Source of the DNA: Escherichia coli
Lineage (GTDB): Bacteria > Pseudomonadota > Gammaproteobacteria > Enterobacterales > Enterobacteriaceae
Reading direction: 5' to 3' (one strand)
Assembly: GCF_003018255.1 (NCBI RefSeq)
Contig: NZ_CP027440.1
Length of the DNA: 64,000 bases
In this document: piece by piece, positions 19,347-62,013 of the stretch
How positions within the stretch are numbered: position 1 is the stretch's first letter
Layout of the letters: each line of letters opens with the position of its first letter
Notes under the pieces: model-generated
Database searches by the model: none
What the model was told of the DNA's origin: nothing
What the model saw: only the letters and a program-made list of their open reading frames with translations
Made by a program: the position numbers and the translations under genes

Positions 19347-19441
19347 TAGAATGTCCTGAAAATTGCGGGTCCGTCAGGTGTAATACCTTCGAGTAAAAGA
19401 TATCGCTGGATACGGCTGACGCCATATCCAGCTATGTAAGA

Positions 19442-21676
19442 CTAACTCCCGTGCAACCGACGCGCGTCGATAACATCCGGCACCTGGTTGAGTTTACCCA
19501 GCACGCGCCCCAGCACTTGCAGGTTGTAAATCTCAATGGTCATGTCGATGGTCGCCAGTTGCTGTTTGGTGTCGCTACGGCTGGCAACGCCAAGTACGTT
19601 CACCTTCTCGTTGGCGAGAATGGTCGTGATATCACGTAACAACCCACTACGATCATTAGCCACCACGCGGACCACCAGCGAATATCCGGCGGAGTAGCTC
19701 TCGCCCCATACCGCGTCAACAATGCGTTCTGGCGCATGGGAGCGCAGTTCCGCCAATTGTTCGCAATCGGCGCGGTGTACTGAAATACCGCGCCCCTGGG
19801 TAATGAAGCCGACAATCTCATCTCCAGGAATCGGCTGGCAGCAGCGCGCGATGTGGTGCATCAGGTTACCGACCCCTTCTACCACCACACGACCGTTATC
19901 TTTACTGCGGTTTTGCGGCGTGTAGCTTTTTTGCTGAAGCTGTTTCAGCGCGGCGGCGTCCTGCTCTTCGGCACTCGGCTTATTAAATTGCGATTGCAGG
20001 AAGTTCACCATCTGATTGAGACGGATATCCCCGCCACCAATCGCCGCCAGCAACTCGTCGACATCATTGAAGTTGTAACGCGGCAGCAGATGTTTTTCTG
20101 CTTCTTTCAGGCTGATCCCCAGATGTTCCAGCTCGTCGTCAAGAATTTGCCGCCCAGCCAGAATGTTTTTGTCACGGTCCTGTTTACGGAACCAGGCGTG
20201 AATTTTCGAACGCCCACGGCTGGTTGTGACGTAACCGAGGTTTGGGTTTAACCAGTCACGGCTGGGGTTCGGCTGTTTCTGGGTGATAATTTCAATCTGG
20301 TCGCCCATCTGCAGCTGGTAGGTGAACGGCACAATGCGCCCGCCAATTTTTGCCCCGATGCAGCGGTGTCCGACATCACTGTGGATGTGGTAAGCGAAGT
20401 CCAGCGGCGTTGATCCCGCAGGCAAATCAACGACATCACCTTTCGGCGTAAAGACGTACACTCGGTCGTCAAAGACCTGACTACGTACTTCGTCGAGCAT
20501 TTCGCCGGAATCAGCCATCTCTTCCTGCCACGCAATCAGTTTACGCAGCCAGGCAATCCGGTCTTCATGTCCCGAACGTGCGCCGCCAGCAGCCGCGCCC
20601 TCTTTATATTTCCAGTGCGCAGCAACACCCAACTCTGCATCTTCATGCATCTGTTTGGTGCGGATTTGGATCTCAACGGTTTTGCCACCCGGCCCCAGAA
20701 CCACGGTATGAATGGACTGATAACCGTTTGGTTTCGGGTTAGCGACGTAATCGTCAAACTCATCCGGCAGGTGGCGATAGTGAGTGTGCACTATCCCCAG
20801 TGCGGCATAACAATCCTGTAAACGCTCGGCGACAATACGTACCGCACGCACATCAAACAGCTCATCGAAGGCGAGGTTCTTTTTCTGCATTTTGCGCCAG
20901 ATACTGTAGATGTGTTTCGGACGGCCATACACTTCAGCTTTAACGCCTTCAGCTTTCATCTCAGCGCGCAGATGGCCGACAAACTCTTCGATATAGTGTT
21001 CGCGGTCGAGACGGCGTTCATGCAGCAGTTTTGCGATGCGTTTGTATTCGGTCGGGTGGAGATAACGGAAGCAGTAATCTTCCAGCTCCCATTTCAGTTG
21101 CCCAATCCCAAGACGGTTCGCCAACGGCGCGTAGATATTGGTGCACTCTTTTGCCGCCAGTACGCGTTCATCTTCCGGCGCATCTTTTACTTCGCGCAGG
21201 TGAGCAATACGCTCCGCCAGTTTGATGACCACGCAGCGAAAATCATCGACCATCGCCAATAACATCCGGCGAACGTTATCGACCTGTTCGGAGGAAACAG
21301 AATCAGTGTGCGTCGCTTTCAGCTGGCGGATCGCCGCCATATCACGCACGCCGTGAATAAGGTTAACGACCGACTTACCGACGCTCTCACGCAGCACATC
21401 TTCGCTGACTACGTTGGCATCAGCCAGAGGGAACAGCAGCGCCGCCCGCAGCGTGTCAATGTCCATACTTAATGTCGAGAGGATCTCCACCATCTCAACA
21501 CCACGCCACAATAACAGACTGGCATCCGGATGCCCCTGCGTCTGTTGCAGACAATACGCCCAGGTTTCGGCTAAGCACTCACACGACTTCTGGCTGGTAA
21601 TACCCAGACTTGCGATCCATTTTTCCGGATCAAATTCACCAGCCTTATTGATATGTGCACTTCTTACCGCAACCAT
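19442..21676 (-). CDS. relA: GTP pyrophosphokinase ((p)ppGpp synthetase I)
   Basis: 744 aa, MVAVRSAHINKAGEFDPEKWIASLGI; C-terminus ...IDARRLHGS. Confidence 0.97.
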   Translation of the reverse strand: MVAVRSAHINKAGEFDPEKWIASLGITSQKSCECLAETWAYCLQQTQGHPDASLLLWRGVEMVEILSTLSMDIDTLRAALLFPLADANVVSEDVLRESVGKSVVNLIHGVRDMAAIRQLKATHTDSVSSEQVDNVRRMLLAMVDDFRCVVIKLAERIAHLREVKDAPEDERVLAAKECTNIYAPLANRLGIGQLKWELEDYCFRYLHPTEYKRIAKLLHERRLDREHYIEEFVGHLRAEMKAEGVKAEVYGRPKHIYSIWRKMQKKNLAFDELFDVRAVRIVAERLQDCYAALGIVHTHYRHLPDEFDDYVANPKPNGYQSIHTVVLGPGGKTVEIQIRTKQMHEDAELGVAAHWKYKEGAAAGGARSGHEDRIAWLRKLIAWQEEMADSGEMLDEVRSQVFDDRVYVFTPKGDVVDLPAGSTPLDFAYHIHSDVGHRCIGAKIGGRIVPFTYQLQMGDQIEIITQKQPNPSRDWLNPNLGYVTTSRGRSKIHAWFRKQDRDKNILAGRQILDDELEHLGISLKEAEKHLLPRYNFNDVDELLAAIGGGDIRLNQMVNFLQSQFNKPSAEEQDAAALKQLQQKSYTPQNRSKDNGRVVVEGVGNLMHHIARCCQPIPGDEIVGFITQGRGISVHRADCEQLAELRSHAPERIVDAVWGESYSAGYSLVVRVVANDRSGLLRDITTILANEKVNVLGVASRSDTKQQLATIDMTIEIYNLQVLGRVLGKLNQVPDVIDARRLHGS

Positions 21677-21723
21677 CGTCCTCTCCTTTAGGGACCAGAC
21701 CTGCCGAAATCGGCAAATCGTAA

Positions 21724-23025
21724 CTATTTAACGCGCGAGAAAAGTACCATCGATTCCAGATGTCCCGTGTGTGGGAACATATCCAGCATCGCCAGTCGCG
21801 CAATGGTATATCCTGCTTTTAATAACGCTTCGCTATCCCGAGCCAGCGTTGCAGGGTTACAGGATACATAAACTATACGAATAGGTTCCAGTTTTATAAT
21901 TTGCTGCATAACACCTGCGGCACCTGCTCGCGCCGGGTCCAGCAACACTTTATCGAAGCCGTTTTTCGCCCACGGCTGCTTTGTGACATCTTCTTCAAGA
22001 TTTTCGTGATAAAACGTCACATTCTGTAAGCCATTAAGACGCGCATTCTGCTGGCCTTTTTCCACCAGCGCCGGAACACCTTCTACACCCACCACACTGG
22101 CAGCTTGTGTCGCCAATGGCAGTGTAAAGTTGCCCATACCGCAGAACAGATCCAGTACGCAATCTTCAGGTTCCACATCCAGCCATTCCAACGCACGCGC
22201 TACCATTTTCTGGTTCACACCCGCATTGACCTGAATAAAATCGCGCGGGCTAAAAGTTAAGCGCAACCCATTTGAGTCATACCAGGGCATCTCACCAGAG
22301 ACGGTTTCGAGTATCTCACTATCGGGGGCGAGATACAGATCCAGGCCTTCAGAATGCGAAAAGCATTCCAGTTTTTCGCGATCTGCCGAACTTAGCGGTG
22401 CGGTATGGCGCAAAATCATTAGCGTGCCGCTGGTTGCCTGTACCAGTTCAACATGACCAAGATGGCGCATAGCTTGTAAGCTGCCCAGGCATGCCCTGAC
22501 TTTGGGCAGCAATGCTTCAAGTTGGGGCACTAAAATGGGGCATTGTTTAACGTCGACAATGTCACTGGAGCCCGCTTTGCGAAACCCCATCTGAAGTTGC
22601 TGTGTTTTCGGTAAGTAGTTCAGACTTAAACGCGCGCGACGGCGATAGCCCCAGGGAACATCGGCGATCACTTCAGAGACTTCGTGTTTCATTAATCGGG
22701 CGAGTGCCGCACTTTTGCTTCGCTGCTGTAAATCCACACTGGCGTGTTGTTGCTGACAGCCGCCGCATACGCCAAAATGAGGACAGCGTGGCGTTTCGCG
22801 TTCCGGGCTATCGCTTAATCGGCGTACGACTTTAGCGCGGGCATACTGTTTTTTATCTTCAGTAACAGTAACTTCCGCGTTTTCCTGCGGCAATAATCCG
22901 GGGATAAATAATGTTTTGCCGTTATGTCGCGCCACACCCTGACCAAAAGAGTCGAGGTCGTTGACTGAAACGGTTATGATCTGACGCGTCGTCGTGCGTC
23001 GTTTTGCAGAGTAGAATTGCGCCAT
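21724..23025 (-). CDS. rlmD: 23S rRNA (uracil1939-C5)-methyltransferase
   Basis: 433 aa; TRAM domain, Fe-S cysteines [14 protein letters not shown]-methyltransferase fold. Confidence 0.93.
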
Positions 23026-23081
23026 TGGCGAGACTTTCTCAATTTAACAGTGTGACCTTAATTGTCCCATAACGGAACTCC

Positions 23082-25838
23082 ATGACCAACTACAGCCTGC
23101 GCGCACGCATGATGATTCTGATCCTGGCACCGACCGTCCTTATTGGTTTATTGCTGAGTATCTTTTTCGTCGTGCATCGCTATAACGACTTGCAGCGTCA
23201 ACTGGAAGATGCCGGTGCCAGCATTATTGAGCCGCTTGCAGTTTCTACTGAATATGGCATGAGTCTGCAAAATCGCGAATCTATCGGTCAGTTAATAAGC
23301 GTACTGCATCGTCGCCATTCTGATATTGTTCGCGCGATTTCGGTTTATGATGAAAATAACCGACTCTTTGTCACCTCCAATTTTCATCTTGATCCCTCAT
23401 CAATGCAGCTCGGCAGCAACGTGCCGTTTCCTCGCCAGCTCACTGTCACTCGTGACGGCGATATAATGATCCTCCGCACGCCGATTATTTCTGAAAGTTA
23501 CTCCCCCGACGAATCGCCCAGTAGCGATGCCAAAAATAGTCAAAATATGCTGGGATATATTGCGCTGGAGCTGGATCTTAAATCGGTTCGCTTGCAGCAA
23601 TATAAAGAGATCTTTATTTCCAGCGTGATGATGCTGTTTTGTATCGGTATTGCGCTTATTTTTGGCTGGCGCTTAATGCGCGATGTAACCGGTCCGATTC
23701 GCAACATGGTGAATACCGTCGACCGCATCCGTCGCGGGCAACTCGACAGCCGGGTGGAAGGTTTTATGCTCGGCGAACTGGATATGCTGAAAAACGGTAT
23801 CAACTCGATGGCAATGTCGCTGGCGGCTTATCACGAAGAGATGCAACACAATATCGACCAGGCGACGTCCGATCTGCGTGAGACGCTGGAGCAAATGGAG
23901 ATTCAGAACGTTGAGTTGGATCTGGCGAAAAAGCGCGCCCAGGAAGCGGCGCGTATTAAATCCGAGTTTCTGGCAAATATGTCACACGAGCTGCGTACAC
24001 CACTGAATGGTGTTATTGGCTTTACCCGCCTGACGCTGAAAACAGAATTAACACCAACGCAGCGCGATCACCTGAATACGATTGAACGTTCGGCAAATAA
24101 TTTGCTGGCAATTATTAATGATGTTCTCGACTTCTCGAAACTGGAAGCCGGTAAGCTGATTCTGGAAAGTATTCCATTCCCACTACGCAGCACGCTGGAT
24201 GAAGTCGTTACCCTGCTGGCACATTCTTCTCACGATAAAGGGCTGGAACTGACGCTCAATATTAAAAGCGACGTGCCTGATAACGTGATCGGCGACCCAC
24301 TACGATTACAGCAAATCATCACTAACCTGGTAGGGAATGCAATTAAATTCACCGAGAATGGCAACATTGATATTCTGGTAGAAAAACGTGCGCTGAGTAA
24401 TACCAAAGTGCAAATTGAAGTGCAGATTCGGGATACCGGCATTGGTATTCCTGAACGCGATCAATCGCGCTTATTCCAGGCCTTCAGACAGGCTGATGCC
24501 AGTATTTCCCGCCGTCATGGTGGCACCGGGCTGGGGCTGGTGATTACACAAAAACTGGTTAATGAAATGGGCGGCGATATTTCGTTCCATAGCCTGCCGA
24601 ATCGTGGTTCAACTTTCTGGTTCCACATTAATCTCGATCTGAACCCGAACATTATTATCGAAGGGCCATCCACCCAGTGCCTCGCTGGTAAGCGCCTGGC
24701 CTATGTCGAACCAAACTCCGCAGCAGCACAATGCACGCTGGATATTTTAAGTGAAACGCCGCTGGAAGTGGTTTATAGCCCAACGTTCTCCGCGCTGCCT
24801 CCCGCGCATTACGACATGATGTTATTAGGCATAGCGGTGACCTTCCGCGAGCCGCTAACAATGCAACATGAGCGATTAGCGAAAGCAGTATCGATGACCG
24901 ATTTCCTGATGCTGGCACTTCCTTGCCATGCACAAGTCAATGCTGAAAAACTTAAGCAAGATGGTATCGGCGCGTGTCTGCTGAAACCATTAACACCTAC
25001 GCGCCTGTTGCCTGCCCTGACGGAATTTTGTCATCACAAACAAAACACGCTTTTGCCTGTAACCGATGAAAGTAAGCTGGCAATGACAGTCATGGCGGTT
25101 GATGACAACCCCGCTAACCTGAAACTTATCGGCGCATTGCTGGAAGATATGGTGCAACATGTGGAACTTTGCGATAGCGGGCATCAGGCGGTTGAACGGG
25201 CGAAACAGATGCCGTTCGATTTAATCTTAATGGATATTCAAATGCCGGACATGGACGGCATTCGGGCATGTGAGCTCATCCACCAGCTCCCGCATCAGCA
25301 GCAAACGCCGGTTATCGCGGTAACGGCGCATGCGATGGCCGGGCAAAAAGAGAAACTGCTTGGCGCGGGGATGAGTGATTATCTGGCCAAACCGATCGAA
25401 GAAGAGCGATTGCATAATTTGCTGTTGCGCTACAAGCCTGGCAGCGGTATTTCCTCTCGCGTCGTGACGCCCGAAGTCAACGAAATTGTGGTCAACCCGA
25501 ATGCGACCCTCGACTGGCAACTGGCACTACGCCAGGCAGCAGGAAAAACCGATTTAGCGCGCGATATGCTGCAAATGTTACTCGATTTCCTGCCTGAAGT
25601 TCGCAACAAAGTTGAGGAACAGCTGGTTGGAGAAAACCCGGAAGGCCTGGTTGATTTGATTCATAAACTGCATGGCAGTTGCGGCTATAGCGGTGTACCG
25701 CGTATGAAGAATCTCTGCCAACTGATCGAACAACAGCTACGTAGCGGTACTAAAGAAGAAGATTTAGAGCCGGAGCTGCTGGAACTGTTGGACGAGATGG
25801 ATAATGTAGCGCGCGAAGCCAGCAAAATTCTCGGGTAA
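23082..25838 (+). CDS. barA: Hybrid sensor histidine kinase of the BarA/UvrY two-component system
   Basis: 918 aa; HAMP, HisKA (H-box SHELRTPLN), HATPase, receiver and HPt domains. Confidence 0.95.
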
Positions 25839-25910
25839 TGGACGTCTTGTCGAGTAGCAACCGGATTTTTATGACGCTGGTTTCAGATTGGTGACAAGTG
25901 CCTGTGTTTA

Positions 25911-25941
25911 TGCCGGATGCGGCGTTAACGCCTTATCCGGC
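25911..25941. repeat. REP element
   Basis: gccggatgcggcgttaacgccttatccggcc, matching the REP consensus, between convergent barA and gudD. Confidence 0.7.
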
Positions 25942-26068
25942 CTGCAAAACCAATTAAATTCAATGAATTAAAAAATGATGTAGCCCTGATACGTAGCGCA
26001 ACAGGCAATTTTGCGTTTGGCATCAGTCTCAAACCGGCTCCAGATAGAGCCGGTTTTGGTTTTCTGTC

Positions 26069-27409
26069 TTAACGCACCATGCACGGACGCTTGTTATCGA
26101 ACGTCCAGCCGGGGATCAGGTACTGCATTCCCATCGCATCGTCACGCGCGCCAAGCCCGTGTTTCTGATACAGCTCGTGCGCTTTCATCACTTGATCCAT
26201 ATCGATTTCTACACCCAGCCCCGGTTTTTCTGGCACCTGAACCAGACCGCCTTTGATCTCTAACGGTTCTTTGGTCAGGCGCTGATTACCTTCCTGCCAG
26301 ATCCAGTGCGTATCAATCGCGGTGATTTTACCCGGTGCGGCAGCGGCAACATGGGTAAACATCGCCAGGGAAATATCGAAGTGGTTGTTGGAGTGTGAAC
26401 CCCAGGTCAGGCCAAATTCATGACACATTTGCGCCACACGTACCGAACCTTGCATCGTCCAGAAATGCGGATCCGCAAGCGGGATATCAACGGATTGCAA
26501 CGAGAGCGTATGGCCCATCTGCCGCCAGTCGGTGGCGATCATATTGGTTGCGGTCGGCAGGCCAGTTGCGCGACGGAACTCTGCCATCACTTCACGCCCG
26601 GAGAAACCTTGCTCCGCACCACACGGATCTTCTGCATAAGCCAGCGAACCTTTCAGGTATGTACCGATTTTAATCGCTTCTTTCAGCGACCAGGCACCGT
26701 TAGGATCGAGCGTAATACGCGCCTGCGGGAAACGTTGCGCCAGTGCCACAATAGATTCGGCTTCTTCTTCCCCGGCCAGTACACCGCCTTTCAGTTTGAA
26801 ATCGTTGAAGCCATATTTTTCATACGCCGCTTCCGCCAGGCGCACCACCGCATCCGGCGTCATCGCTTCTTCATGACGCAGGCGATACCAGTCGCATGAG
26901 TCATCCGGCTGGCTTTGATACGGCAGCGGTGTAGCTTTGCGATTGCCGACGAAGAACAGATAACCGAGCATTTCGACTTCGCTACGCTGTTGACCATCGC
27001 CCAGCAGCGATGCCACGTTTACCCCCAGATGCTGCCCCAGCAGATCCAGCATTGCCGCTTCTATCCCGGTAACTACATGAATAGTGGTACGCAAATCAAA
27101 TGTCTGCAAACCGCGCCCACCGGCATCACGATCGGCAAAAGTATTACGCACCAGCGTCAGAACGTTTTTGTATTCACCCAGCGTTTTACCCACCACCAGC
27201 GGAATCGCATCTTCCAGCGTTTTACGGATTTTCTCGCCGCCGGGAATTTCCCCTACGCCAGTGTGACCGGAATTATCTTTGATAATCACAATATTACGCG
27301 TGAAGAACGGTGCATGTGCACCACTCAGATTCATCAGCATACTGTCATGACCCGCCACCGGGATGACCTGCATTTCAGTAACAACAGGCGTCGTAAATTG
27401 AGAACTCAT
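26069..27409 (-). CDS. gudD: Glucarate dehydratase
   Basis: ORF 26069..27433 trimmed to [32 protein letters not shown] (446 aa); enolase-superfamily member. Confidence 0.93.
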
Positions 27410-27429
27410 ATTTATGTCCTTTTTCAGAA

Positions 27430-28770
27430 TCAATGACGGCCGAAAACGGGACGTTTACGGTCAAAGGTCCAGCCGGGGATCAGGTACTGCATCGGGCCTG
27501 CGTCGTTACGCGCACCGCCAGGCAGACGTTTATAGGCCTCATGTGCCTTTTGTACCTGTTCCCAGTCCAGTTCCACGCCCAGACCGGGCGCATCAGGAAC
27601 GGCAATTTTTCCGTTTTTAATCTCCAGCGGATTTTTGGTCAGACGACAATCGCCCTCCTGCCAAATCCAGTGGGTATCGATAGCGGTAGGATTACCCGGT
27701 GCCGCCGCGCCCACATGGGTAAACATCGCCAGAGAGATATCAAAGTGGTTATTAGAATGGCAGCCCCAGGTCAGCCCCCAGTCGTCGCAAAGTTGTGCCA
27801 CGCGGACTGCACCGGAAAGCGTCCAGAAGTGCGGATCGGCAAGTGGAATATCTACCGCATTGAGCATCACCGCATGACCCATTTCGCGCCAGTTGGTGGC
27901 GATCATGTTGGTCGCGACGGGCAAGCCGGTCGCCCGTCGAAACTCCGCCATCACTTCACGACCGGAGAAACCCTGCTCAGCGCCGCACGGGTCTTCCGCA
28001 TAGGTAAGAACATCATTCAGCCCTTTGCACAGAGAAATGGCTTCATCAAGCAGCCAGGCACCATTGGGATCAACGGTAATCCGCGCATCAGGGAAGCGTT
28101 TCTTCAATGCACGAACAGTGTCGATTTCTTGCTCGCCAGGTAACACGCCACCCTTAAGTTTGAAATCTTTAAAGCCATAGCGATCCTGTGAGGCTTCCGC
28201 CAGACGCACAACGGCTTCGCTGTTCATCGCTTTCTGATGCCGCAACTGATACCACTCATGGTTGCCCGGCGTATTTTCCAGATAAGGAAGATCGGTTTTG
28301 GTCCGATCACCGATATAAAACAGATAACCGAGAACGGTAATAGCATCACGTTGCTTGCCTGGCCCTAACAGTTCGCAGACCGGAACATTCAGCGCCTGAC
28401 CTAACAGGTCAAGCAAAGCGGCTTCCAGCGCCGCCACGGCATTAACGCGCAATTCAAAAGTCCAGGCACCTTTGCCGAAGGTATCAAAATCGGCTGCCTG
28501 ATTACCTTTATGCACCTGCTGAACCACTTTATTCAGGCGCGCAACTTCCTGGCCCAGCACCATCGGAATAGCCTCGACCAGTGTTTGATAAATCACCTCT
28601 CCGCCCGGCGCTTCACCAATGCCGGTATGCCCGGCGTTATCGGTGAGTACCACAATATTGCGGGTGAAATATGCGTTATGTGCACCACCAATATTAAGCA
28701 ACATGCTGTCATGTCCGGCGACCGGAATGACTTTCATATCAGTAATAACAGGACTGGATTGTGTCGTCAT
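27430..28770 (-). CDS. gudX: Glucarate dehydratase-related protein
   Basis: 446 aa paralogue of gudD ([31 protein letters not shown]). Confidence 0.93.
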
Positions 28771-28771
28771 C

Positions 28772-30124
28772 TTATTGCCCCGCGACAGGTTTCAGCTCAA
28801 TACGCTTGATATCGCCCACCAGCACCAGGTAGCTGAGTACCGCGATTAAGGCATGAACACCAACATAAATCAGCGCCCCATTAAAGGAGCCAGTCGTGCC
28901 AACGATATAACCAATTGCGATTGGCGTGACGATGCCAGAAATGTTACCAAACATGTTGAACAGGCCACCGGAAAGACCGCTGATCTCTTTTGGCGCAGTA
29001 TCAGCCATTACAGCCCAACCCAGCGCCCCGATCCCCTTACCGAAGAAGGCCAGCGCCATAAAGCCGATGATCATCCACTCAACGTTGACGTAGTTGCAGA
29101 ACACCATCACCATCGACAACAACATGCCCATCACGATCGGTGTTTTACGCGCAATGTTCAGTGAACCCGTGCGACGCATCAGCCAGTCGGAAATAATCCC
29201 ACCCAGCACACCGCCGATAAAACCGCAAACCGCCGGAACGGAAGCCACAAAGCCCGCTTTCAGAATCGACATCCCGCGCGCCTGCACCAGATAAACCGGG
29301 AACCAGGTAATGAAAAAGTAAGTCAGGGCGTTGATACAGTACTGACCGATATAAACGCCGATCATCATCCGTGACCCGAGCAGCTGTTTGATCTGCCCCC
29401 ACTTCACGCTGAACGGCACTTTAACTTTGGTGTTTTGCTGATCCATATTGATCAGCGCGCCACCCGCGGCGATGTACTCCAGCTCTTTCTGATTTACGCC
29501 CGGATGTTGATTTGGCTCGTGGATGACTTTCAACCAGATAAAGCTGATGACAATGCCCAGACCGCCCATAAAGAAGAAGACGTGTGACCAGCCCACTTCA
29601 TGAGTTAGCCAGCCCATAATCGGCGCGAAGATAACCGTTGCGAAGTATTGGGCGGAGTTAAAAATCGACACCGCCGTTCCCCTTTCCTGCGCCGGAAACC
29701 AGGCCGCAACAATGCGGCTGTTGCCAGGGAAAGATGGCGCTTCAGCAAGCCCGACCAGGAAGCGCAGTGTAAACAGGGCAACGATAATGCCGAATCCACT
29801 AAAGATATCGACGAAGCCTTGCAGCAAGGTAAACATCGACCAGATAAAGATCGACCAGAAGTAGACGCGTTTTGAACCAAAACGATCCAGCAACCAGCCA
29901 CCAGGGATCTGCCCGATAACATACGCCCATGAGAAGGCAGAGAACACATAGCCCATTCCCACGGGATCAAGGCCGATATCTTTGGCCATTTCCGAACCGG
30001 CAATAGAAAGCGTAGCGCGGTCGCCGTAGTTGAAGGATGTGACGATAAACAACATCACCACTATCCAGTAACGAGCATTCGTGCGTTTTTCCACACTGCT
30101 CGCAGCCTGACTTAAAGAACTCAT
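28772..30124 (-). CDS. gudP: Glucarate/galactarate MFS transporter
   Basis: 450 aa MFS; first gene of the gudPXD operon. Confidence 0.92.
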
Positions 30125-30558
30125 TGTTGCACTCCTGAAAATTCGCGTTAGCCACGCTCACTCTGGACTGCGACATCGCCAGGAAATCAGAGGTGACGTA
30201 GGGTGTTTTTTGCCGTTTTTATAGGTCGTTCGCCGAATACGGCGCGTGTTTATATCTGGCAATAGCAGTATAAAAAGCGCGCCATAGCGGCTCACCGTGC
30301 AACAACACAACATTAATGCGTTCAATGAGGCCCGATTTTGGCATTAGCCCTGGACGGTGGAATCCACTTCACGGAAATGAAAACAAGAACAAGAAAGGAA
30401 GGGTTAAAACGAAGAAATAAAGAAGAGTATGAAATGGATCGCTTGACTCCAGGCAAACGCCAGTAAAAATCCGCGCTATGAAGCAGTTTTTACTGGCATT
30501 TGCCTGAAAAGATTCGATTCAGCACCGCTAAAACGGCATTTACCGCTCGCTGAACATA

Positions 30559-31008
30559 TCAGGACAACATCGTGCCCCAATGTTCGACCCACGGATTTGA
30601 TTCCGTTTCCGGTTCCGGGTTCTCACTGGCGTCAATCAACAGCATTTCGCCAACCCGCTGAGCGCTCTGTTCCTGCAACAAGGCATCGAACTGTTTGCCA
30701 CTATTGCAGAAATTCACATAACTACTGTCGCCGAGCGCAATCACGCCATAACGCAGATTCGGCTGGAAGCCCAGGGTATCTTTAATTCCCTGAAAGAGCG
30801 GCACAATGCTATCAGGAAGGTCGCCCTGCCCGGTCGTGGACGTAACCACCAGAACATACTTATCCTGATAGGGCAGCCAGTCGCTTAATTCAGGATCTTC
30901 AAATACCGTTGCTTTGTGGCCCTGCGCGGTCAGAATTGCTTCCGCTTCTTCCGCCACTAACAGCGAATTTCCGTACATAGTGCCGACAAAAATACCAATT
31001 TCCGCCAT
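30559..31008 (-). CDS. yqcA: Flavodoxin-like protein
   Basis: 149 aa, [23 protein letters not shown]; flavodoxin fold. Confidence 0.88.
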
Positions 31009-31025
31009 ACCGTTTTCTCCCTGGA

Positions 31026-31808
31026 TTAGGAACTTATCTCTCCATCCTGACCCGATGGCGCACTGAACTCAACCCTTTCATTTTCAGGAAGCAGACCCCG
31101 CCAGCCAAATTGTGATAACGCCTGCATCCAGGTGTCGTCCAGGCCCGCGTGAATAGTCAGTGGCTCGCCAGTAAAAGGATGCGTCAATGACAACTGACTG
31201 GCATGCAGCATTAACCGCTGAAGGCCAAAATGTTCAGCACCGCTGCGATTCTGGCGTAAATCACCATGTTTGCTGTCGCCAATAATCGGGTGGCGCAAAT
31301 GGGCAAGATGGCGACGGAGCTGGTGCTTACGTCCGGTTTTCGGCTCCAGTTCCACCAGGCCGTAGCGCGTGGTCGGGTAACGTCCGGTCGCTACCAGCAT
31401 TTCTACGGTCGCCAGACCGCGATAATGCGTCACTGCTGGCTGCGGGCCTTTATCTTCGCGGGCAAATTTATCAGCGATTTTGTCCAGTTCTTCCACCAGT
31501 GGATAATCCAGCACCGCTTCTTCCATCAACCAGCCGCGCACAATCGCATGGTAACGTTTCTGGATTTGGTGCTGTTCAAACTGTTGTGCCAGCAGCCGTC
31601 CGGCCTCGCTGGATAATCCCATCAACAACACACCAGAAGTGGGTCGGTCCAGACGATGAGCAGTAAACACATGCTGGCCTATCAGGTCACGCACGGTTTG
31701 CATGACCACTACTTTCTCGTCGCGATCCAGCCAGCTGCGGTGAACCAGCCAGCCGGAGGGTTTATTTACCGCAACCAGCCATTCATCCTGATAGAGTATT
31801 TCCAGCAT
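31026..31808 (-). CDS. truC: tRNA pseudouridine(65) synthase
   Basis: 260 aa RluA-family pseudouridine synthase (HRLDRPTSG motif). Confidence 0.92.
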
Positions 31809-32137
31809 TAGCTCGCATCATCCGCAAAAAGAGCATCCAGTTTTTCCAGCTCAGCCAGAATAAGCGCGCGTTGCGGATGATCAGTCGCCAGCGCCATTTC
31901 ATAATAGGGTGCAACGGCAAAAGCGCCCGGTAACGGCTGGTTGTTATCTAACAAATCGTGCATTCGCGGGATCAGCACCCACTGCAACCACTCCAGTGGT
32001 TCCATGGTGTCCATAAAGAACGGTTGGGTACTGTTAAATTGATGCGGCTGGGGTTTATCGTTTCGCCAGTGCTGATGTTCACGCAGTAACGCTTCAAGCG
32101 CCTGCAACTGGAGACGAACGCGGTCATGAGTGGTCAT
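31808..32137 (-). CDS. yqcC: DUF446-family protein
   Basis: 109 aa; stop overlaps the truC start. Confidence 0.85.
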   Translation of the reverse strand: MTTHDRVRLQLQALEALLREHQHWRNDKPQPHQFNSTQPFFMDTMEPLEWLQWVLIPRMHDLLDNNQPLPGAFAVAPYYEMALATDHPQRALILAELEKLDALFADDAS

Positions 32138-32182
32138 AAAGCAACCTCAATAAGAAAAACTGCCGCGAAGGATAGCAGGAAT

Positions 32183-32548
32183 AAAAAAAGGGAGCACTGT
32201 ATTCACAGTGCTCCCGGTTCGTTTCGCAGCATTCCGGCTACTTTTGTTGCTCCCTGCTCATCCTTGACAACTTTTCCTCTGGCCTTGCGGCCAATCGTTC
32301 ATCCTGAACTATTGCTTCCTGCTCACACCACCCCGATGTGATACTTCATCCTGAAGTGTTCCTGGCCTTCCTGACCCACCGAATCATCCTGACCGGTTCT
32401 CATTCTCCATCCTGGAGGTGTCCTTTAACGCGTCCTGCGTCATCCTCTTCGCTTCATCCAGAAGCCTTTCCCTGAAACACCATCCTGGTGTGTCCTTCAG
32501 AAGTGTCATCATCCTGATGTTCACTTCGTTGTCTGACTCCCTGTCGAC
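32183..32548 (-). ncRNA. csrB: CsrB small RNA (CsrA-sequestering)
   Basis: Minus strand begins GTCGACAGGGAGTCAGACAACGAAGTGAACATCAGGATGATG; about 18 CAGGA(U/A)G-type GGA motifs; 3' hairpin gggagcactgtgaatacagtgctccc followed by a T-run. Confidence 0.93.
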
Positions 32549-32758
32549 GAAGATAGAATCGTCTTTTTCGCGAAGTCTTACAAGGCGCTTACAGACAATG
32601 CCTTAAGGAAAATTTCATATGAAAGTTAAGAATTAACAAGCAACATGTTGTTTTTAAATGAGAATAACGATTCTTATCTTTTTAAGTATTCGCTTATTTC
32701 CTGGCGATCTCCTACAGAGTCTGTAAGAGATCTCTCACAACCAGATGGGGTATTTGGA

Positions 32759-50717: not shown

Positions 50718-50923
50718 ACTTCCTGAGCCGGAACGAAAAGTTTTATCGGAATGCGTGTTCTGGTGAACTTTTGGCTTACGGTTGTGATGTTGTGTTGTTG
50801 TGTTTGCAATTGGTCTGCGATTCAGACCATGGTAGCAAAGCTACCTTTTTTCACTTCCTGTACATTTACCCTGTCTGTCCATAGTGATTAATGTAGCACC
50901 GCCTAATTGCGGTGCTTTTTTTT
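50718..50923 (+). ncRNA. gcvB: GcvB small RNA
   Basis: ACTTCCTGAGCCGGAACGAAAAGTTTTATCGG...GTTGTGATGTTGTGTTGTTGTGTTTGC (G/U-rich seed region) ending in the hairpin gcaccgcctaattgcggtgc plus T-run; divergent from gcvA. Confidence 0.93.
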
Positions 50924-55246: not shown

Positions 55247-55323
<77 letters not shown>

Positions 55324-55356
55324 ATTAAAATTTGATGAAGTAAAGCAGTACGGTGA

Positions 55357-55433
<77 letters not shown>

Positions 55434-55466
55434 ATCAAAATTTGATGAAATAAAGCAGTACGGTGA

Positions 55467-55543
<77 letters not shown>

Positions 55544-55561
55544 ATTTATTAGAATGCTGAC

Positions 55562-55596
55562 AAACCGCAAAGCTACTATTGGCTTGCGGTTTTTTC
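55562..55596 (+). terminator. Rho-independent terminator of the metZWV operon
   Basis: Hairpin aaccgcaaagc...gcttgcggtt followed by tttttt. Confidence 0.7.
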
Positions 55597-56174
55597 GTTT
55601 TTACGCTTCCTTACCCGTTTCAGTGAAGCCTGAGACAATGAGTAAACCGTTAATATCCCTCCATCAAAGCCATCCATCTTATTTATATATTAAACATATA
55701 CCCCATTAATGAATTTTATATATTCTATAAATCAATTTATTTTGGTTATGTTAACATTTCAATATCACAACAGGGCGCTACGCTTATATAATCATTGTAC
55801 AAAAAGCACACAACTTTTTAATTAGTAGAAAAATTAATAATTTTTTGTGAAAGCCCGGACAATAAGTTTAATGAATATCTTAATAGGCTCTCATACTACC
55901 CAATTTCTTAAAAGTGCAAATTTGTGAAGCTTACCCTGTTATTATTTTAAGTTTCATGCCAAATTCTCTCACCAGATAATGCCACCCTCTCCCGAAAAAT
56001 AATCAAGAGGCCAAACAATATCTAAAATGATACAACTGTATCTATTCCCCTGAAAAATACATTATTCATTTGTATATTTTCCTCATCATTGCTTTTTATT
56101 TAAATCATCCGATAATCCCCTGAATATAATTATGTCAATAACCATCAGAAAAAGTGGATGATGAGGAAAAGGAT

Positions 56175-56675
56175 ATGGCCGACAGTTTCCAGAATGAAGT
56201 TCCCGCCGCTCGTGTAAATATCAAGCTTGATCTGCATACAGGCAATGCTAAAAAGAAAGTTGAACTCCCCCTCAAGCTTCTTGCCGTAGGCGATTACAGT
56301 AACGGAAAAGAGCAACGTCCGCTGTCCGAACGGGACAAGGTTGATATCAATAAAAACAACTTCAACAGCGTCATGGCTGAGTTTTCGCCTGCGGTTAATT
56401 TAACAGTAGAAGATACGCTAAACGGAAACGGTAATGAACAAAATATCGCGCTTGAATTTAAAAGCCTGAAGGATTTTGAACCCGAACAGGTAGCAAAAAA
56501 TATTCCGCAACTTCGTGTATTACTCGCTATGCGCAATTTACTACGTGACCTGAAATCCAATCTGCTGGATAACGCAACGTTTCGCCGTGAACTGGAAAAT
56601 ATCCTGAAAGACCCGACGCTCAGTTCAGAACTGCGTGATGAACTGGCGAAAATTGCGCCGCAGGAGAACGTTTAA
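56175..56675 (+). CDS. tssB: Type VI secretion contractile sheath small subunit TssB (VipA)
   Basis: ORF 56154..56675 trimmed to MADSFQNEVPAARVNIKLDLHTGNAKKKVELPLKLLAVGDYS (166 aa), the characteristic TssB N-terminus; RBS aggaaaagga ahead. Confidence 0.9.
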   Translation: MADSFQNEVPAARVNIKLDLHTGNAKKKVELPLKLLAVGDYSNGKEQRPLSERDKVDINKNNFNSVMAEFSPAVNLTVEDTLNGNGNEQNIALEFKSLKDFEPEQVAKNIPQLRVLLAMRNLLRDLKSNLLDNATFRRELENILKDPTLSSELRDELAKIAPQENV

Positions 56676-56733
56676 CCCGAACGCGTATTCAGGTTAAACC
56701 GGAGAAGAAAGGATCCCTAAAAAGGAAATGCTG

Positions 56734-58272
56734 ATGTCTGTACAACAAGAATATGCCACCTCTGAAACTGCAACACTCACCACCACTGAGTCCGGCGGCG
56801 TTTATCAGTCCCTGTTTGATAAAATTAATTTAACCCCGGTCTCTTCCATTCAGGAAATCGATTTATGGCAAAACAGCGAAACGCTGGCCGATGCTTCACC
56901 CGATGAGCGCGTGACGGCGGCGATCCACGTTCTGCTTTCCTGTCTGGCGAAATCAGGCGAGGACGTGGTTAAACTCGACAAGAGCCTGCTGGATTTTCAT
57001 ATCGACGATTTGGATCAGAAAATCAGTAAACAGCTTGATGCAGTCATGCACCATCCGGAATTCCAGAAAGTCGAGTCGCTCTGGCGCGGCACATGGTTCG
57101 TCGTACAGCGCACCGATTTTCGCAAAAATGTCAAAATTGAACTGCTGGATATCAGTAAAGAACATCTGCGGCAGGACTTTGATGATTCTCCGGAAATCAT
57201 TCAAAGTGGTTTATATCGCCATACATACATTCAGGAATATGATACGCCGGGTGGCGAACCTGTAGCCTCATTAATATCCAGCTATGAATTCGATAACAGC
57301 CCGCAGGATATTGCCCTGCTGCGTAATATTTCCAGAGTCTCTGCTGCATCACATATGCCCTTTATCGGTTCCGTCGGACCGAAGTTCTTCCTTAAAAACT
57401 CGATGGAAGAAGTCGCCGCAATTAAAGATATCGGCAACTATTTTGACCGCGCGGAATATATCAAATGGAAGTCGTTCCGCGATACCGACGACAGCCGCTA
57501 CGTGGGATTAGTGATGCCGCGCGTGCTGGGCCGTCTGCCCTATGGCCCGGACACGGTGCCGGTACGCAGCTTTAACTATGTGGAAGAGGTCAAAGGCCCG
57601 GATCACGAAAAGTACCTCTGGACAAACGCCTCGTTTGCCTTTGCCGCCAATATGGTGAAGAGTTTTGTGAATAATGGCTGGTGTGTGCAGATCCGTGGTC
57701 CGCAGGCGGGTGGCGCAGTAGCCGATCTGCCGATCCATCTTTACGATCTCGGCACCGGCAATCAGGTCAAAATTCCGTCCGAAGTGATGATCCCGGAAAC
57801 CCGCGAGTTTGAGTTCGCCAACCTTGGCTTTATCCCGCTCTCTTATTATAAGAATCGCGATTACGCCTGCTTCTTCTCAGCGAACTCTGCCCAGAAACCG
57901 GCGCTGTATGATACCGCTGACGCCACCGCCAACAGCCGTATCAACGCCCGTTTGCCCTATATCTTCCTGCTGTCCCGCATTGCTCACTACCTGAAAATCA
58001 TTCAGCGCGAGAATATCGGCACCACCAAAGACAGACGCGTGCTGGAACTGGAGCTGAACACCTGGATCCGCACGCTGGTGACGGAAATGACCGATCCGGG
58101 CGATGAACTTCAGGCTTCGCATCCACTGCGCGACGGGAAAGTTATCGTCGAGGACATAGAGGACAATCCGGGCTTTTTCCGCGTCAGACTCTTTGCCGTG
58201 CCGCATTTCCAGATCGAAGGGATGGACGTCAACCTTTCTCTGGTTTCCCAGATGCCAAAAGCAAAAGCCTGA
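56734..58272 (+). CDS. tssC: Type VI secretion contractile sheath large subunit TssC (VipB)
   Basis: About 512 aa from MSVQQEYATSE; size and position after tssB; the ATG at 56728 is an alternative start. Confidence 0.9.
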   Translation: MSVQQEYATSETATLTTTESGGVYQSLFDKINLTPVSSIQEIDLWQNSETLADASPDERVTAAIHVLLSCLAKSGEDVVKLDKSLLDFHIDDLDQKISKQLDAVMHHPEFQKVESLWRGTWFVVQRTDFRKNVKIELLDISKEHLRQDFDDSPEIIQSGLYRHTYIQEYDTPGGEPVASLISSYEFDNSPQDIALLRNISRVSAASHMPFIGSVGPKFFLKNSMEEVAAIKDIGNYFDRAEYIKWKSFRDTDDSRYVGLVMPRVLGRLPYGPDTVPVRSFNYVEEVKGPDHEKYLWTNASFAFAANMVKSFVNNGWCVQIRGPQAGGAVADLPIHLYDLGTGNQVKIPSEVMIPETREFEFANLGFIPLSYYKNRDYACFFSANSAQKPALYDTADATANSRINARLPYIFLLSRIAHYLKIIQRENIGTTKDRRVLELELNTWIRTLVTEMTDPGDELQASHPLRDGKVIVEDIEDNPGFFRVRLFAVPHFQIEGMDVNLSLVSQMPKAKA

Positions 58273-58291
58273 TCGGGCGGTGGTGTGATGT

Positions 58292-59629
58292 ATGAAAATT
58301 TGTCGACCACTGTGGGCTGAGGGGACATTCCTGTCTTCTCAGCAGTTTCAGCAGCAGGCCCGCTGGGAAGCGTTCAGCAATGACAGCATTGCGCAGCTTT
58401 GTATTCGCCATCCGTGGGGGATCTCAAACGTGCTCTTTGACCGGGATGCCCTGACGCTCGGAAAGCTGAAAACGCAGGCAGTACGCCTGCGTTTTGCTGA
58501 TGGTACGCTGATCGATTCAGACGTGGCGGATATTCTGCCGCCTGCCTGTGACCTGCGCACGCTGGAGGGCGGCAGCGCGATTGTTTTGCTGGCGCTGCCG
58601 CTTGCGCATGGTAACGGCGGTAATCTCGGTCAGGGCGAGCAGGCTGAAAGGCCGCTGCGCTATCGTCAGGAATGGCAAAAGGTGCAGGATATCTACGGCA
58701 GTGACAGTGAAGATATGGCCGTTGAGCGCCATGCACTGTCCCTGCGCTTTGCCCATGATAACAATCAGGATTACATCACCTGTCCGCTGGCGCGTCTGGT
58801 GCGGGATGTTCAGGGCAACTGGACGCAGGATGAGAGCTATATTCCGCCGTTACTGACGTTAAACGCCCATGACGGGCTGGTACAGCGCCTGGACACGCTG
58901 CTGTTGCAGCTACGGGCGAAGTGCCAGCGCCTGATGGCGATGCGCCGGGAAAGCAACCAGCGCATGGCGGACTTCGCCGTCGCCGATGTCTCTCTGTTCT
59001 GGCTGCTTAACGCCCTGAATTCCGCCGAGCCGGTGCTGAGCGATTTCCTGCGCTACCCGGCTGTCCACCCCGAACTGGTCTGGCGGGAGCTGGCGAGGCT
59101 TGCCGGTGCGCTGCTGACGTTTTCCCTTGAGCATAACGTCAGCGCCGTTCCGCCCTATGTCCACGAATCGCCGTCCACCGTCTTTCCGCCACTGTTCTCC
59201 CTGCTCAGCGAGCTGCTGGAAGCCAGCCTGCCGTCGCGGGTGATCGCGCTGGATCTGGCGTCCCTGCCGGGCAACCGCTGGAAAGCCGACCTGCACGATC
59301 CGCGCCTGCAGGAAGAAGCCGATTTTTACCTGTCCGTTCGTTCCTCACTGCCTGCGCATCAGGTACTGCACCAGCTACCGCTGGTCTGCAAAATCGGTGC
59401 GCCTGATGACGTCACGCTGCTTATCAACGTGGCGCTGAACGGTGTTCCACTGGTGCCACTCACCTCGGTTCCGGCGGCGCTGCCGCTGCGGCTGGAGAGC
59501 CAGTATTTTGCGCTGGATATGCACAGTGACGCGGCTAAATCGATGCTGGAGTCCGGGTGCTGCATGATTTATGCGCCGGGAACAATGGGCGACCTGAAAC
59601 CTGAACTGTTTGCGGTGCTGCGCTCATGA
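58292..59629 (+). CDS. tssK: Type VI secretion baseplate protein TssK
   Basis: 445 aa, MKICRPLWAEGTFLSSQQFQQQARWEAF, the TssK N-terminal signature. Confidence 0.88.
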   Translation: MKICRPLWAEGTFLSSQQFQQQARWEAFSNDSIAQLCIRHPWGISNVLFDRDALTLGKLKTQAVRLRFADGTLIDSDVADILPPACDLRTLEGGSAIVLLALPLAHGNGGNLGQGEQAERPLRYRQEWQKVQDIYGSDSEDMAVERHALSLRFAHDNNQDYITCPLARLVRDVQGNWTQDESYIPPLLTLNAHDGLVQRLDTLLLQLRAKCQRLMAMRRESNQRMADFAVADVSLFWLLNALNSAEPVLSDFLRYPAVHPELVWRELARLAGALLTFSLEHNVSAVPPYVHESPSTVFPPLFSLLSELLEASLPSRVIALDLASLPGNRWKADLHDPRLQEEADFYLSVRSSLPAHQVLHQLPLVCKIGAPDDVTLLINVALNGVPLVPLTSVPAALPLRLESQYFALDMHSDAAKSMLESGCCMIYAPGTMGDLKPELFAVLRS

Positions 59630-60291
59630 AAAAAGAGACGGATATCAATATCGACGTGCTGCTGCGCGACACGTTTCTGACGGTGGTGGAACTGCGTCAG
59701 GGAACCACCGTGCGTCACGGTATCGAGCTGTATCGCCACTGTCAGCGGCAGGTGGAACTGGTCCGCGAACGTCTGAAAGATGCCGGATTCAGTCGGGAGA
59801 ACGTGGAGCACATAACTTACGCGCAGTGCGCCCTGCTGGACGAAACGGTGCTCAGCCGTAGTGGCATGGACGACGGTCAGGCCATCTGGATGAAAAACCC
59901 ACTCCAGTCGCATTTCTTCAACACTCTGCAGGCAGGCGAGCTGCTGTACGAACGGATGAAGCAGGTGTTGCAGGAGCCCGCCCCCGCGCAGGCAGTGCTG
60001 ACCTGCTTTCACCGTGTCCTGCTGCTGGGATTTCGCGGGCGTTATCAGGATCCGGTGGCCCCGGAGCGTGACCAGCTTATTTCGACGCTCAACGGGCTGG
60101 TCGCGCCATTTGGCGTGCTGCCGGAAACGGCGGTACTGAACGTGCCGTTATCCCCCCGTCAGCATCCTTTGCTGCATTCGCCGTTTTTCTGGCTGGTAAC
60201 GCTGACGCTGCTACTGGCCGGTGTCTGGTGGGGACTGCACCACTGGCTGAACGTGCTGGTGGATGAATTGCTGCCGCAAAGCCTGCGGTAA
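59626..60291 (+). CDS. tssL: Type VI secretion membrane protein TssL (DotU family)
   Basis: 221 aa; ATGA overlap with the tssK stop; single C-terminal TM segment LHSPFFWLVTLTLLLAGVWWGL. Confidence 0.85.
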   Translation: MKKETDINIDVLLRDTFLTVVELRQGTTVRHGIELYRHCQRQVELVRERLKDAGFSRENVEHITYAQCALLDETVLSRSGMDDGQAIWMKNPLQSHFFNTLQAGELLYERMKQVLQEPAPAQAVLTCFHRVLLLGFRGRYQDPVAPERDQLISTLNGLVAPFGVLPETAVLNVPLSPRQHPLLHSPFFWLVTLTLLLAGVWWGLHHWLNVLVDELLPQSLR

Positions 60292-60303
60292 AGGGAGCCG
60301 TGA

Positions 60304-61956: not shown

Positions 61957-62013
61957 AACATACCGCCGGAAGAAGGCGGTGCTTCAATCACACTAACAAG
62001 GAGAGTAATTCTC

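Follow-up and report, generated by a model that had tools for sequence, protein, structure and literature searches.

The barA–csrB region

The window analysed here, a 64-kb stretch of Escherichia coli DNA, is colinear with the K-12 genome from queD to metV and then runs into a T6SS island. It carries the gene for the sensor kinase BarA and, convergent with it, the gene for the small RNA CsrB, which has its own promoter and terminator:

23082–25838, plus strand: barA, tripartite hybrid sensor histidine kinase (NF008318 match; 918 amino acids plus stop)
26069–32137, minus strand: gudD, gudX, gudP, yqcA, truC and yqcC, six genes unrelated to Csr (NCBIfam matches)
32180–32548, minus strand: csrB, 369-nt CsrA-sequestering small RNA (RF00018 match and mapping of K-12 b4408)
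32183–32215, minus strand: csrB intrinsic terminator, an 11-bp stem with a 4-nt loop (32215–32190) and a run of seven U (T7 in the DNA, 32189–32183)

The stop codon of barA lies 6,341 nt from the csrB 3′ end and 6,710 nt from its 5′ end, for which the ‘about 7 kb’ of the original prediction is a fair rounding. The genes in between follow the order gudD-gudX-gudP-yqcA-truC-yqcC found in K-12 and other E. coli. Just upstream, relA stands in the order relA-rlmD-barA, and relA, barA and csrB fall within about 13 kb. None of uvrY, csrA, csrC and csrD appears in the gene list of the 64-kb window.

The barA product matches the NCBIfam equivalog model NF008318, ‘sensor histidine kinase BarA’, with 1,621.4 bits against a cutoff of 890, in a full-length alignment of residues 1–917 to profile positions 1–917 of 920. 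Six Pfam domains, each above its cutoff, follow one another on a single chain: sCache_4 (31–177), HAMP (198–248), HisKA (293–357), HATPase_c (404–518), Response_reg (670–780) and Hpt (828–910), in the order expected of a periplasmic sensor, HAMP, transmitter, receiver and Hpt. BarA belongs with GacS, VarS and LetS to one family of tripartite sensor kinases. The phosphorelay residues H302, D718 and H861, numbered as in K-12 BarA, are found in their motif contexts, with LIHKLHG around H861. K-12 BarA (b2786) has the same length, the same six domains, the same three residues and the same relA-rlmD-barA surroundings, and differs by the single substitution Q505L (917 of 918 residues identical). The earlier placement of barA at 23082–25838 stands. 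According to PMC4682653, deletion of barA in K-12 lowers the UvrY ChIP signal at csrB about 35-fold; given its near-identity to the K-12 protein, the BarA of the window would probably phosphorylate UvrY in the same way and be needed for UvrY binding at csrB.

Identity of the csrB RNA

On the minus strand, the Rfam model RF00018 matches 32539–32180 with 381.7 bits (gathering score 71, E = 4.9e-111), exceeding the family threshold more than fivefold, and the match covers model positions 1–356 of 356 and is not truncated. Membership of the CsrB/RsmB group was judged by the criteria of Kulkarni et al. 2006 (PMC1488887) together with the RF00018 gathering score. This covariance-model search had been proposed both as a check on the original prediction and as the test that could refute it, and it brought no refutation. 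The curated K-12 csrB (b4408), founding member of RF00018 CsrB/RsmB, is also 369 nt long and maps to 32548–32180 with 365 of 369 positions identical (98.9%). Both the minus strand and the 5′ end at 32548 had been called as in the K-12 annotation, but the predicted 3′ end at 32183 fell 3 nt short of the annotated one, within the U tail.

The four substitutions relative to K-12, numbered along the RNA, are 52 C>A, 189 G>A, 313 U>C and 340 G>A. Every GGA is left intact, and the last change turns a G–U pair of the terminator stem into A–U; no functional difference from the K-12 RNA is expected through these changes. The two genes share the yqcC/syd locus, the number of GGA cores and the terminator, and upstream they share a UvrY palindrome and a TGTAGGAGA half-site at identical offsets. 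In the window, csrB is intergenic, with gaps of 42 nt to yqcC and 210 nt to syd, the flanks that PMC1488887 gives for csrB in E. coli and Salmonella. The region is found in 5,425 of 5,426 complete E. coli genomes, and the identical sequence occurs in other genomes of the species. A 100%-identical strain has no csrB feature in its RefSeq PGAP annotation; the gap is an omission of the annotation pipeline and not an absence of the gene, and the curated K-12 record has csrB. From its 98.9% identity to the K-12 RNA, the csrB transcript of the window would be expected to bind multiple CsrA dimers and to antagonise CsrA in vivo.

GGA motifs, predicted fold and terminator

The 369-nt RNA holds 22 GGA cores, 18 of them in an AGGA or ARGGA context, in agreement with the ‘roughly 18’ CAGGA(U/A)G-like motifs counted earlier; exact CAGGA(U/A/C)G occurs nine times. 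These motifs are enriched. AGGA is present 15 times, against 3.7 in shuffled sequences; AGGA[TA]G is present 10 times, where shuffling predicts 0.58 (maximum 4 in 2,000 shuffles) and the mean over the whole window is 0.19 per 360 nt; and CAGGA[TA]G is present eight times, against 0.11 expected (maximum 3 in 2,000 shuffles).

The minimum free energy fold has −117.7 kcal/mol (z = −3.49) and places 13 of the 22 GGA cores in hairpin loops and six in otherwise unpaired positions, leaving three paired. An alignment of 32 orthologues has 66 consensus pairs, with 97.5% of cells paired compared with 35–53% when the pairing is slid, and compensatory changes occur at 32 of the 66 pairs. The covariation score of 0.232, compared with 0.03–0.06 for slid pairings, was reached in none of 500 shuffles. 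The predicted hairpins, in which the original prediction had suggested counting GGA motifs, are thus supported by covariation across 32 species.

The terminator had been described as readable directly from the sequence, and the scan bears this out: an 11-bp stem with seven G–C pairs is followed by U7. All 11 stem pairs are kept in the 32 species, four of them with compensatory changes (helix 15 of the alignment).

Promoter region and UvrY site

An inverted repeat for UvrY had been suggested as something to look for upstream of 32548, and the region contains the following elements, with offsets counted from the csrB 5′ end:

32722–32739, no strand assigned: UvrY-P binding site, 18-nt palindrome TGTGAGAGATCTCTTACA, −191 to −174
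32708–32716, minus strand: partial UvrY half-site TGTAGGAGA, −168 to −160, 5 bp downstream of the palindrome
32641–32653, minus strand: candidate IHF site AAACAACATGTTG, −105 to −93 (pattern scan, one mismatch to WATCAANNNNTTR)
32555–32593, minus strand: csrB core promoter region, with TGTAAG repeats at −45 to −40 and −34 to −29
within 32555–32593, minus strand: putative csrB hexamers, −35 TTGTAA (−35 to −30), a 17-nt spacer and a weak −10 GATTCT (−12 to −7)

The palindrome is an exact match to TGTRAGN6CTYACA and the only such site in the 64-kb window in a targeted IUPAC search. A generic search for inverted repeats picked up an overlapping 13-nt repeat (I3) and not the palindrome itself. The palindrome has the same sequence and position as the UvrY-P site of PMC4682653, footprinted by DNase I and also seen by ChIP-exo, centred at −183/−182 upstream of csrB. 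In other species the palindrome lies at −189 to −194, its position varying within about 3 nt, in at least 30 of the 34 loci in which csrB was detected. The pattern search missed four of the 34 loci as well as the upstream copy in locus L029, and 30 is a lower bound because at least that upstream copy has a near-match, TGTAGGAGATCTCTTACA.

The remaining elements can be set beside the promoter described in PMC4682653. An extra, partially conserved sequence of the TGTAGGAGA type is described there for the E. coli and Salmonella csrB promoters. Two regions of UvrY crosslinking, −222 to −142 and −56 to +25, are reported with a putative IHF site between them; the candidate AAACAACATGTTG, which may be that kind of site, also falls between the two, and the core promoter region lies inside the promoter-proximal one. 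The assignment of TTGTAA and GATTCT as hexamers is tentative, and a strict sigma-70 scan upstream of csrB found no strong promoter. We read this as a weak, activator-dependent promoter, at which such a null result is expected.

Gene order across species

csrB was sought in other species with nhmmer and Rfam. It was detected in 34 loci, and every time it sits on the downstream side of barA in convergent orientation, at distances from 1,669 to 9,455 nt, a range of about five-fold. Linkage extends from Escherichia to Pantoea stewartii, covering all sampled Enterobacteriaceae and at least P. stewartii beyond them, and persisted wherever the downstream block was retained and the flank was long enough; five Erwinia, Mixta and Pantoea loci and several short contigs, which end at or before yqcA, were left unscored. 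The median distance is 7,376 nt with gudDXP (n = 26) and 3,262 nt without (n = 8). The gud genes are absent from the interval in E. albertii and seven other species, in which three small genes separate barA from csrB, with a gap of 1,724 nt in E. albertii. The functionally unrelated genes truC, yqcC, syd and queF are conserved beside csrB.

No Csr/Rsm RNA was found within 10 kb of barA in Yersinia, Rahnella, Edwardsiella, Rouxiella, Moritella or Alcanivorax, all six of which keep relA-rlmD-barA. Yersinia, Rahnella and Edwardsiella thus differ from E. coli in lacking csrB within 10 kb of barA, and published tables put csrB beside syd in Yersinia, Photorhabdus and Pectobacterium (PMC1488887). 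The csrB/rsmB loci of Salmonella, Yersinia and Pectobacterium, and rsmY/rsmZ of Pseudomonas under GacS-GacA, follow the regulatory logic of E. coli: a sensor kinase acts with a FixJ-type response regulator, an 18-bp palindrome lies upstream, and the decoy RNA carries GGA repeats (PMC1488887, PMC4682653). Adjacency of csrB to syd is kept throughout Enterobacterales. The Pseudomonas Rsm RNAs sit in unrelated contexts, at rpoS/fdxA and dnr (PMC1488887, Table 1).

Stable partnerships are seen on either side of the interval, csrB with syd and barA with relA and rlmD. The 3′ flank of barA is a variable junction at which gudDXP comes and goes.

Is the closeness of barA and csrB selected?

The closeness could be maintained by selection, with barA and csrB kept as a co-localised module for co-inheritance or within a shared chromosomal or supercoiling domain for coherent expression. 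The linkage in all 34 loci with a detected csrB, at 1.7–9.5 kb, speaks for such a module, as does the short gap in gud-less species. By our own post hoc arithmetic, two specified genes would come within 6.7 kb of each other on a circle of about 4.7 Mb by chance in about 0.3% of cases. In addition, the gene immediately upstream of rlmD-barA is relA, which is reportedly wired into the Csr circuitry. However, BarA makes no contact with csrB DNA, and the intermediary UvrY is diffusible and encoded outside the window. The two genes are convergent, with three to six unrelated genes between them, and csrB has its own promoter and terminator, so that there is neither a shared control region nor co-transcription. 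Spacing shifts about five-fold with gain and loss of gudDXP, and the distance therefore shows no sign of constraint. Yersiniaceae, Edwardsiella and Moritella have lost the linkage, the unrelated neighbours syd, queF and truC are as well conserved as csrB itself, and the second UvrY target, csrC, lies far away between yihA and yihI (PMC1488887). Neither linkage wherever both genes exist, nor constrained spacing, shared control or co-transcription, nor UvrY within the cluster was found, and we regard a selected module as improbable.

A broader version of this idea takes relA-rlmD-barA-(gud)-yqcA-truC-yqcC-csrB as a selectively retained ‘stringent response / Csr’ supercluster, and we hold it to be just as improbable. 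If it were true, a ppGpp synthetase, the Csr sensor kinase and the Csr decoy RNA would be held within about 13 kb for co-inheritance or domain-level co-expression. The two parts have different ranges, relA-rlmD-barA persisting to Moritella and Alcanivorax, and barA-csrB being found in the sampled Enterobacteriaceae and at least Pantoea stewartii.

The closeness of barA and csrB is best read as inherited gene order, in which two conserved blocks abut. Of the significance that the original prediction had implied for the spacing, its reality and its conservation in Enterobacteriaceae stand, but it behaves as ordinary block synteny.

Discussion

We are highly confident that this stretch is the standard E. 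coli barA–csrB region working as published, with no mechanistic role for the spacing. Membrane-bound BarA, a tripartite hybrid kinase, would autophosphorylate and relay phosphate from His302 to Asp718 to His861 and on to UvrY, a response regulator encoded elsewhere on the chromosome. UvrY-P on the 18-nt palindrome about 183 bp upstream, helped by DNA bending by IHF, would then activate the weak csrB promoter. The about 18–22 GGA motifs of CsrB, mostly in short hairpin loops, would bind CsrA dimers and titrate CsrA off its mRNA targets. The phosphorelay, UvrY/IHF binding and CsrA sequestration are taken from the literature, and the gene identities, motifs, RNA structure, binding-site sequence and synteny come from the present analysis; the sequence of the window is consistent with the published chain from BarA through UvrY and csrB transcription to CsrA sequestration. 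As for the gene order, the blocks relA-rlmD-barA and yqcA-truC-yqcC-csrB-syd-queF probably abut in Enterobacteriaceae and some Erwiniaceae by happenstance, and gudDXP is inserted at their junction in E. coli.

It is extremely improbable that the GGA-rich segment is instead CsrC, RsmY or RsmZ, or a decayed, non-functional copy of csrB. GGA repeats are common to the Csr/Rsm clan and a scan cannot prove expression, but nothing specific favours either version. Rfam clan competition keeps CsrB for the full-length match, and the segment occupies the canonical intergenic position between yqcC and syd. Both versions are at odds with the near-identity to an experimentally characterised K-12 RNA, with a full set of GGA motifs, with an intact promoter palindrome and terminator, and with the identical sequence in other E. 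coli genomes. A reading of the GGA enrichment and the palindrome as accidents of intergenic sequence has a practically negligible probability: at least one match to TGTRAGN6CTYACA with up to one mismatch does occur in 22 of 100 window shuffles, so the pattern alone is not rare, but the RF00018 match, motif counts far above the 2,000-shuffle maxima, an exact palindrome at the position given in PMC4682653, its place conserved to about 3 nt across 30 of the 34 loci with csrB, and covarying hairpins refute the chance reading.

The identifications of barA and csrB, which nothing contradicts, the GGA-loop decoy mechanism and the UvrY palindrome are all already known from textbook E. coli. The window repeats that biology almost base for base and has little weight as a discovery; the check closes the finding, in that the annotations are correct and the 7-kb closeness of barA and csrB is adequately explained by conserved gene order.

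barA and csrB in the window

The window is colinear with the reference genome K-12 MG1655 from about 2,891,277 to 2,947,692, at 96.5–98% identity. Gene order from rlmD to queF is the same here, in K-12 and in another E. coli strain: rlmD(−), barA(+), gudD(−), gudX(−), gudP(−), yqcA(−), truC(−), yqcC(−), csrB(−), syd(−), queF(+). The main features are:

23082–25838, plus strand: barA, encoding the BarA sensor kinase
26069–30124, minus strand: gudD, gudX and gudP (gudDXP)
32548–32180, minus strand: csrB, encoding the CsrA-sequestering sRNA
32722–32739: palindrome upstream of csrB
55555–64000: type VI secretion genes tssC, tssK, tssL and tssH, and an OmpA-family gene

The barA open reading frame encodes 918 amino acids and matches the NCBIfam BarA equivalog end to end (1621 bits, cutoff 890), with the Pfam domains sCache_4, HAMP, HisKA, HATPase_c, Response_reg and Hpt in that order and the phosphorelay residues H302, D718 and H861 all within their motif contexts. 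The sole protein difference from K-12 BarA is Q505L.

The assignment of csrB to the minus strand is borne out by the full CsrB covariance model (Rfam RF00018), which covers 32539–32180 (381.7 bits, gathering score 71, E = 4.9e-111). Curated K-12 csrB (369 nt) maps onto 32548–32180 with four substitutions and no GGA lost: those at RNA positions 52, 189 and 313 keep every GGA core, and the G>A change at window position 32209 (RNA position 340) turns a terminator-stem G–U wobble into an A–U pair. The terminator, readable as noted, closes the gene with a G+C-rich stem of 11 bp and then U7. There are 22 GGA cores, nine of them in an exact CAGGA(U/A/C)G; the ‘roughly 18’ motifs originally counted correspond to the 18 cores in AGGA/ARGGA context, the CsrA-site definition of Kulkarni et al. 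(PMC1488887). AGGA[TA]G occurs 10 times in csrB, compared with 0.58 in shuffles, and CAGGA[TA]G 8 times, compared with 0.11.

Of 5426 complete E. coli genomes, 5425 match a 701-nt probe spanning the proposed csrB, and in several the match is 100% identical. Despite 100% sequence identity, csrB goes unannotated between yqcC and syd in the PGAP-annotated E. coli record inspected (NZ_CP116067.1, locus L001), but it is annotated in the hand-curated record of K-12.

Elsewhere in the window, the K-12 mazE–mazF toxin–antitoxin pair (about 690 bp, after relA) is missing at 19389–19441, where about 53 bp stand between relA and mazG, a junction common to 1006 of 5426 complete E. coli genomes. GcvB sRNA at 50718–50923 (RF00022, 199 bits) is divergent from gcvA as in K-12, and is ordinary. 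Three tandem tRNA genes at 55247–55540, with identical Rfam scores and 110-nt spacing, correspond as expected to K-12 metZ–metW–metV (initiator tRNA-Met). The K-12 match ends directly after the third, metV, where the type VI secretion genes begin; they seem to belong to a genomic island associated with metV, an island that 1436 of the 5426 complete E. coli genomes carry.

CsrB secondary structure and repeat number

The minimum free energy fold of CsrB (−117.7 kcal/mol, z = −3.49) is predicted to place 13 of the 22 GGAs in hairpin loops, leaving 6 otherwise unpaired and 3 paired. RNAalifold on a 32-species alignment, with sequences recovered through a BarA scan, gives 66 pairs in 15 helices, with compensatory double changes in 32 pairs. 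Across these consensus pairs, 97.5% of cells are paired; shifting the 3′ partners by 1–3 columns lowers this to 35–53% and takes the covariation score from 0.232 down to 0.03–0.06, and the observed values are not matched in any of 500 column shuffles. The GGA triplets in the loops are among the columns that vary little or not at all.

In some species CsrB has an additional hairpin unit of GGAUGA type, or about 50 nt duplicated internally, so the number of repeats in this decoy RNA drifts from genus to genus:

L012 (Enterobacter sp. ENT03) and L026 (Pseudescherichia vulneris), alignment A1 columns ~268–285
L011 (Pseudocitrobacter)

In an uncultured Enterobacteriaceae metagenome-assembled genome (L029), csrB is present as a tandem pair of 97% identical copies, each with 24 GGAs:

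L029 15981–16352 and 16670–17038, minus strand

Both copies end in a terminator of their own, and their upstream regions, which have diverged, each include a UvrY-like palindrome (TGTAAGATATCTCTCACA and TGTAGGAGATCTCTTACA). The pair may be an assembly artefact; Photobacterium and Colwellia are known to have csrB in tandem (PMC1488887).

UvrY site upstream of csrB

The inverted repeat suggested for UvrY, the response regulator phosphorylated by BarA, is present upstream of 32548. TGTRAGN6CTYACA has a single match in the 64-kb window, at 32722–32739, reading TGTGAGAGATCTCTTACA on the csrB strand (−191 to −174 from the annotated 5′ end, centre −182.5). In the work of Zere et al. 2015 (PMC4682653), the identical 18-mer is centred at −183/−182; DNase I footprinting shows it protected by phosphorylated UvrY, and ChIP-exo shows it crosslinked. 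That study also describes, 5 bp downstream, a partial TGTAGGAGA site, found here at 32716–32708, and puts a putative IHF site in the interval separating the distal from the promoter-proximal crosslinking region; a one-mismatch IHF consensus at −105 to −93 is our candidate. The palindrome is kept at −189 to −194 in 30 of 34 csrB-positive loci of other species, including Pantoea stewartii. The original observation is confirmed and its interpretation supported; the barA/csrB region agrees nearly to the base with E. coli biology as published.

Origin of the barA–csrB proximity

The stated distance of about 7 kb measures 6341 nt from the barA stop codon to the csrB 3′ end and 6710 nt to its 5′ end, and gudDXP makes up most of it. 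One scan of genome contigs with BarA yielded 71 loci with flanks of up to 10 kb on each side, which were searched for csrB by nhmmer, tblastn and Rfam. csrB was detected in 34, those with the yqcA–truC–yqcC block kept and a long enough flank, always downstream of barA on the opposite strand (34/34). Median spacing is 7376 nt with gudDXP (n = 26) and 3262 nt without (n = 8). E. albertii (1724 nt) and seven other species lack gudDXP at this position:

L004, L022, L023, L024, L029, L030, L032, L053

The block junction, the barA 3′ flank, is variable because gudDXP has been gained or lost there.

On the barA side, relA–rlmD–barA is contiguous at 19442–25838, and relA/ppGpp is itself wired into Csr circuitry. 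The same order recurs at loci L048, L050, L058 and L059, in Moritella (47% BarA identity) and Alcanivorax (34%), far beyond the range of barA–csrB linkage. At Rfam gathering thresholds, the 10-kb downstream flank contains no Csr/Rsm RNA in Yersinia, Rahnella, Edwardsiella, Rouxiella, Moritella or Alcanivorax, and all of these loci keep relA–rlmD–barA; the Candidatus Pantoea persica locus (10-kb flank) likewise has no Csr/Rsm RNA, and rlmD is also undetected. For csrB, in turn, Kulkarni et al. 2006 (PMC1488887) list syd as the flanking gene in Yersinia, Photorhabdus and Pectobacterium, and remark that csrB tracks syd in general. There are therefore two separate blocks, relA–rlmD–barA and yqcA…syd–queF, the second of which includes csrB; they abut in Enterobacteriaceae and some Erwiniaceae.

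That selection holds barA and csrB together as a ‘module’ is very improbable: their spacing ranges from 1669 to 9455 nt, shifting with gain or loss of gudDXP; the unrelated neighbours truC, syd and queF are conserved equally with csrB; and uvrY, whose product is what binds at the csrB promoter, is not among the window genes. Given the two-block layout, these conserved neighbours and a UvrY encoded elsewhere, we treat the barA–csrB proximity as inherited gene order.
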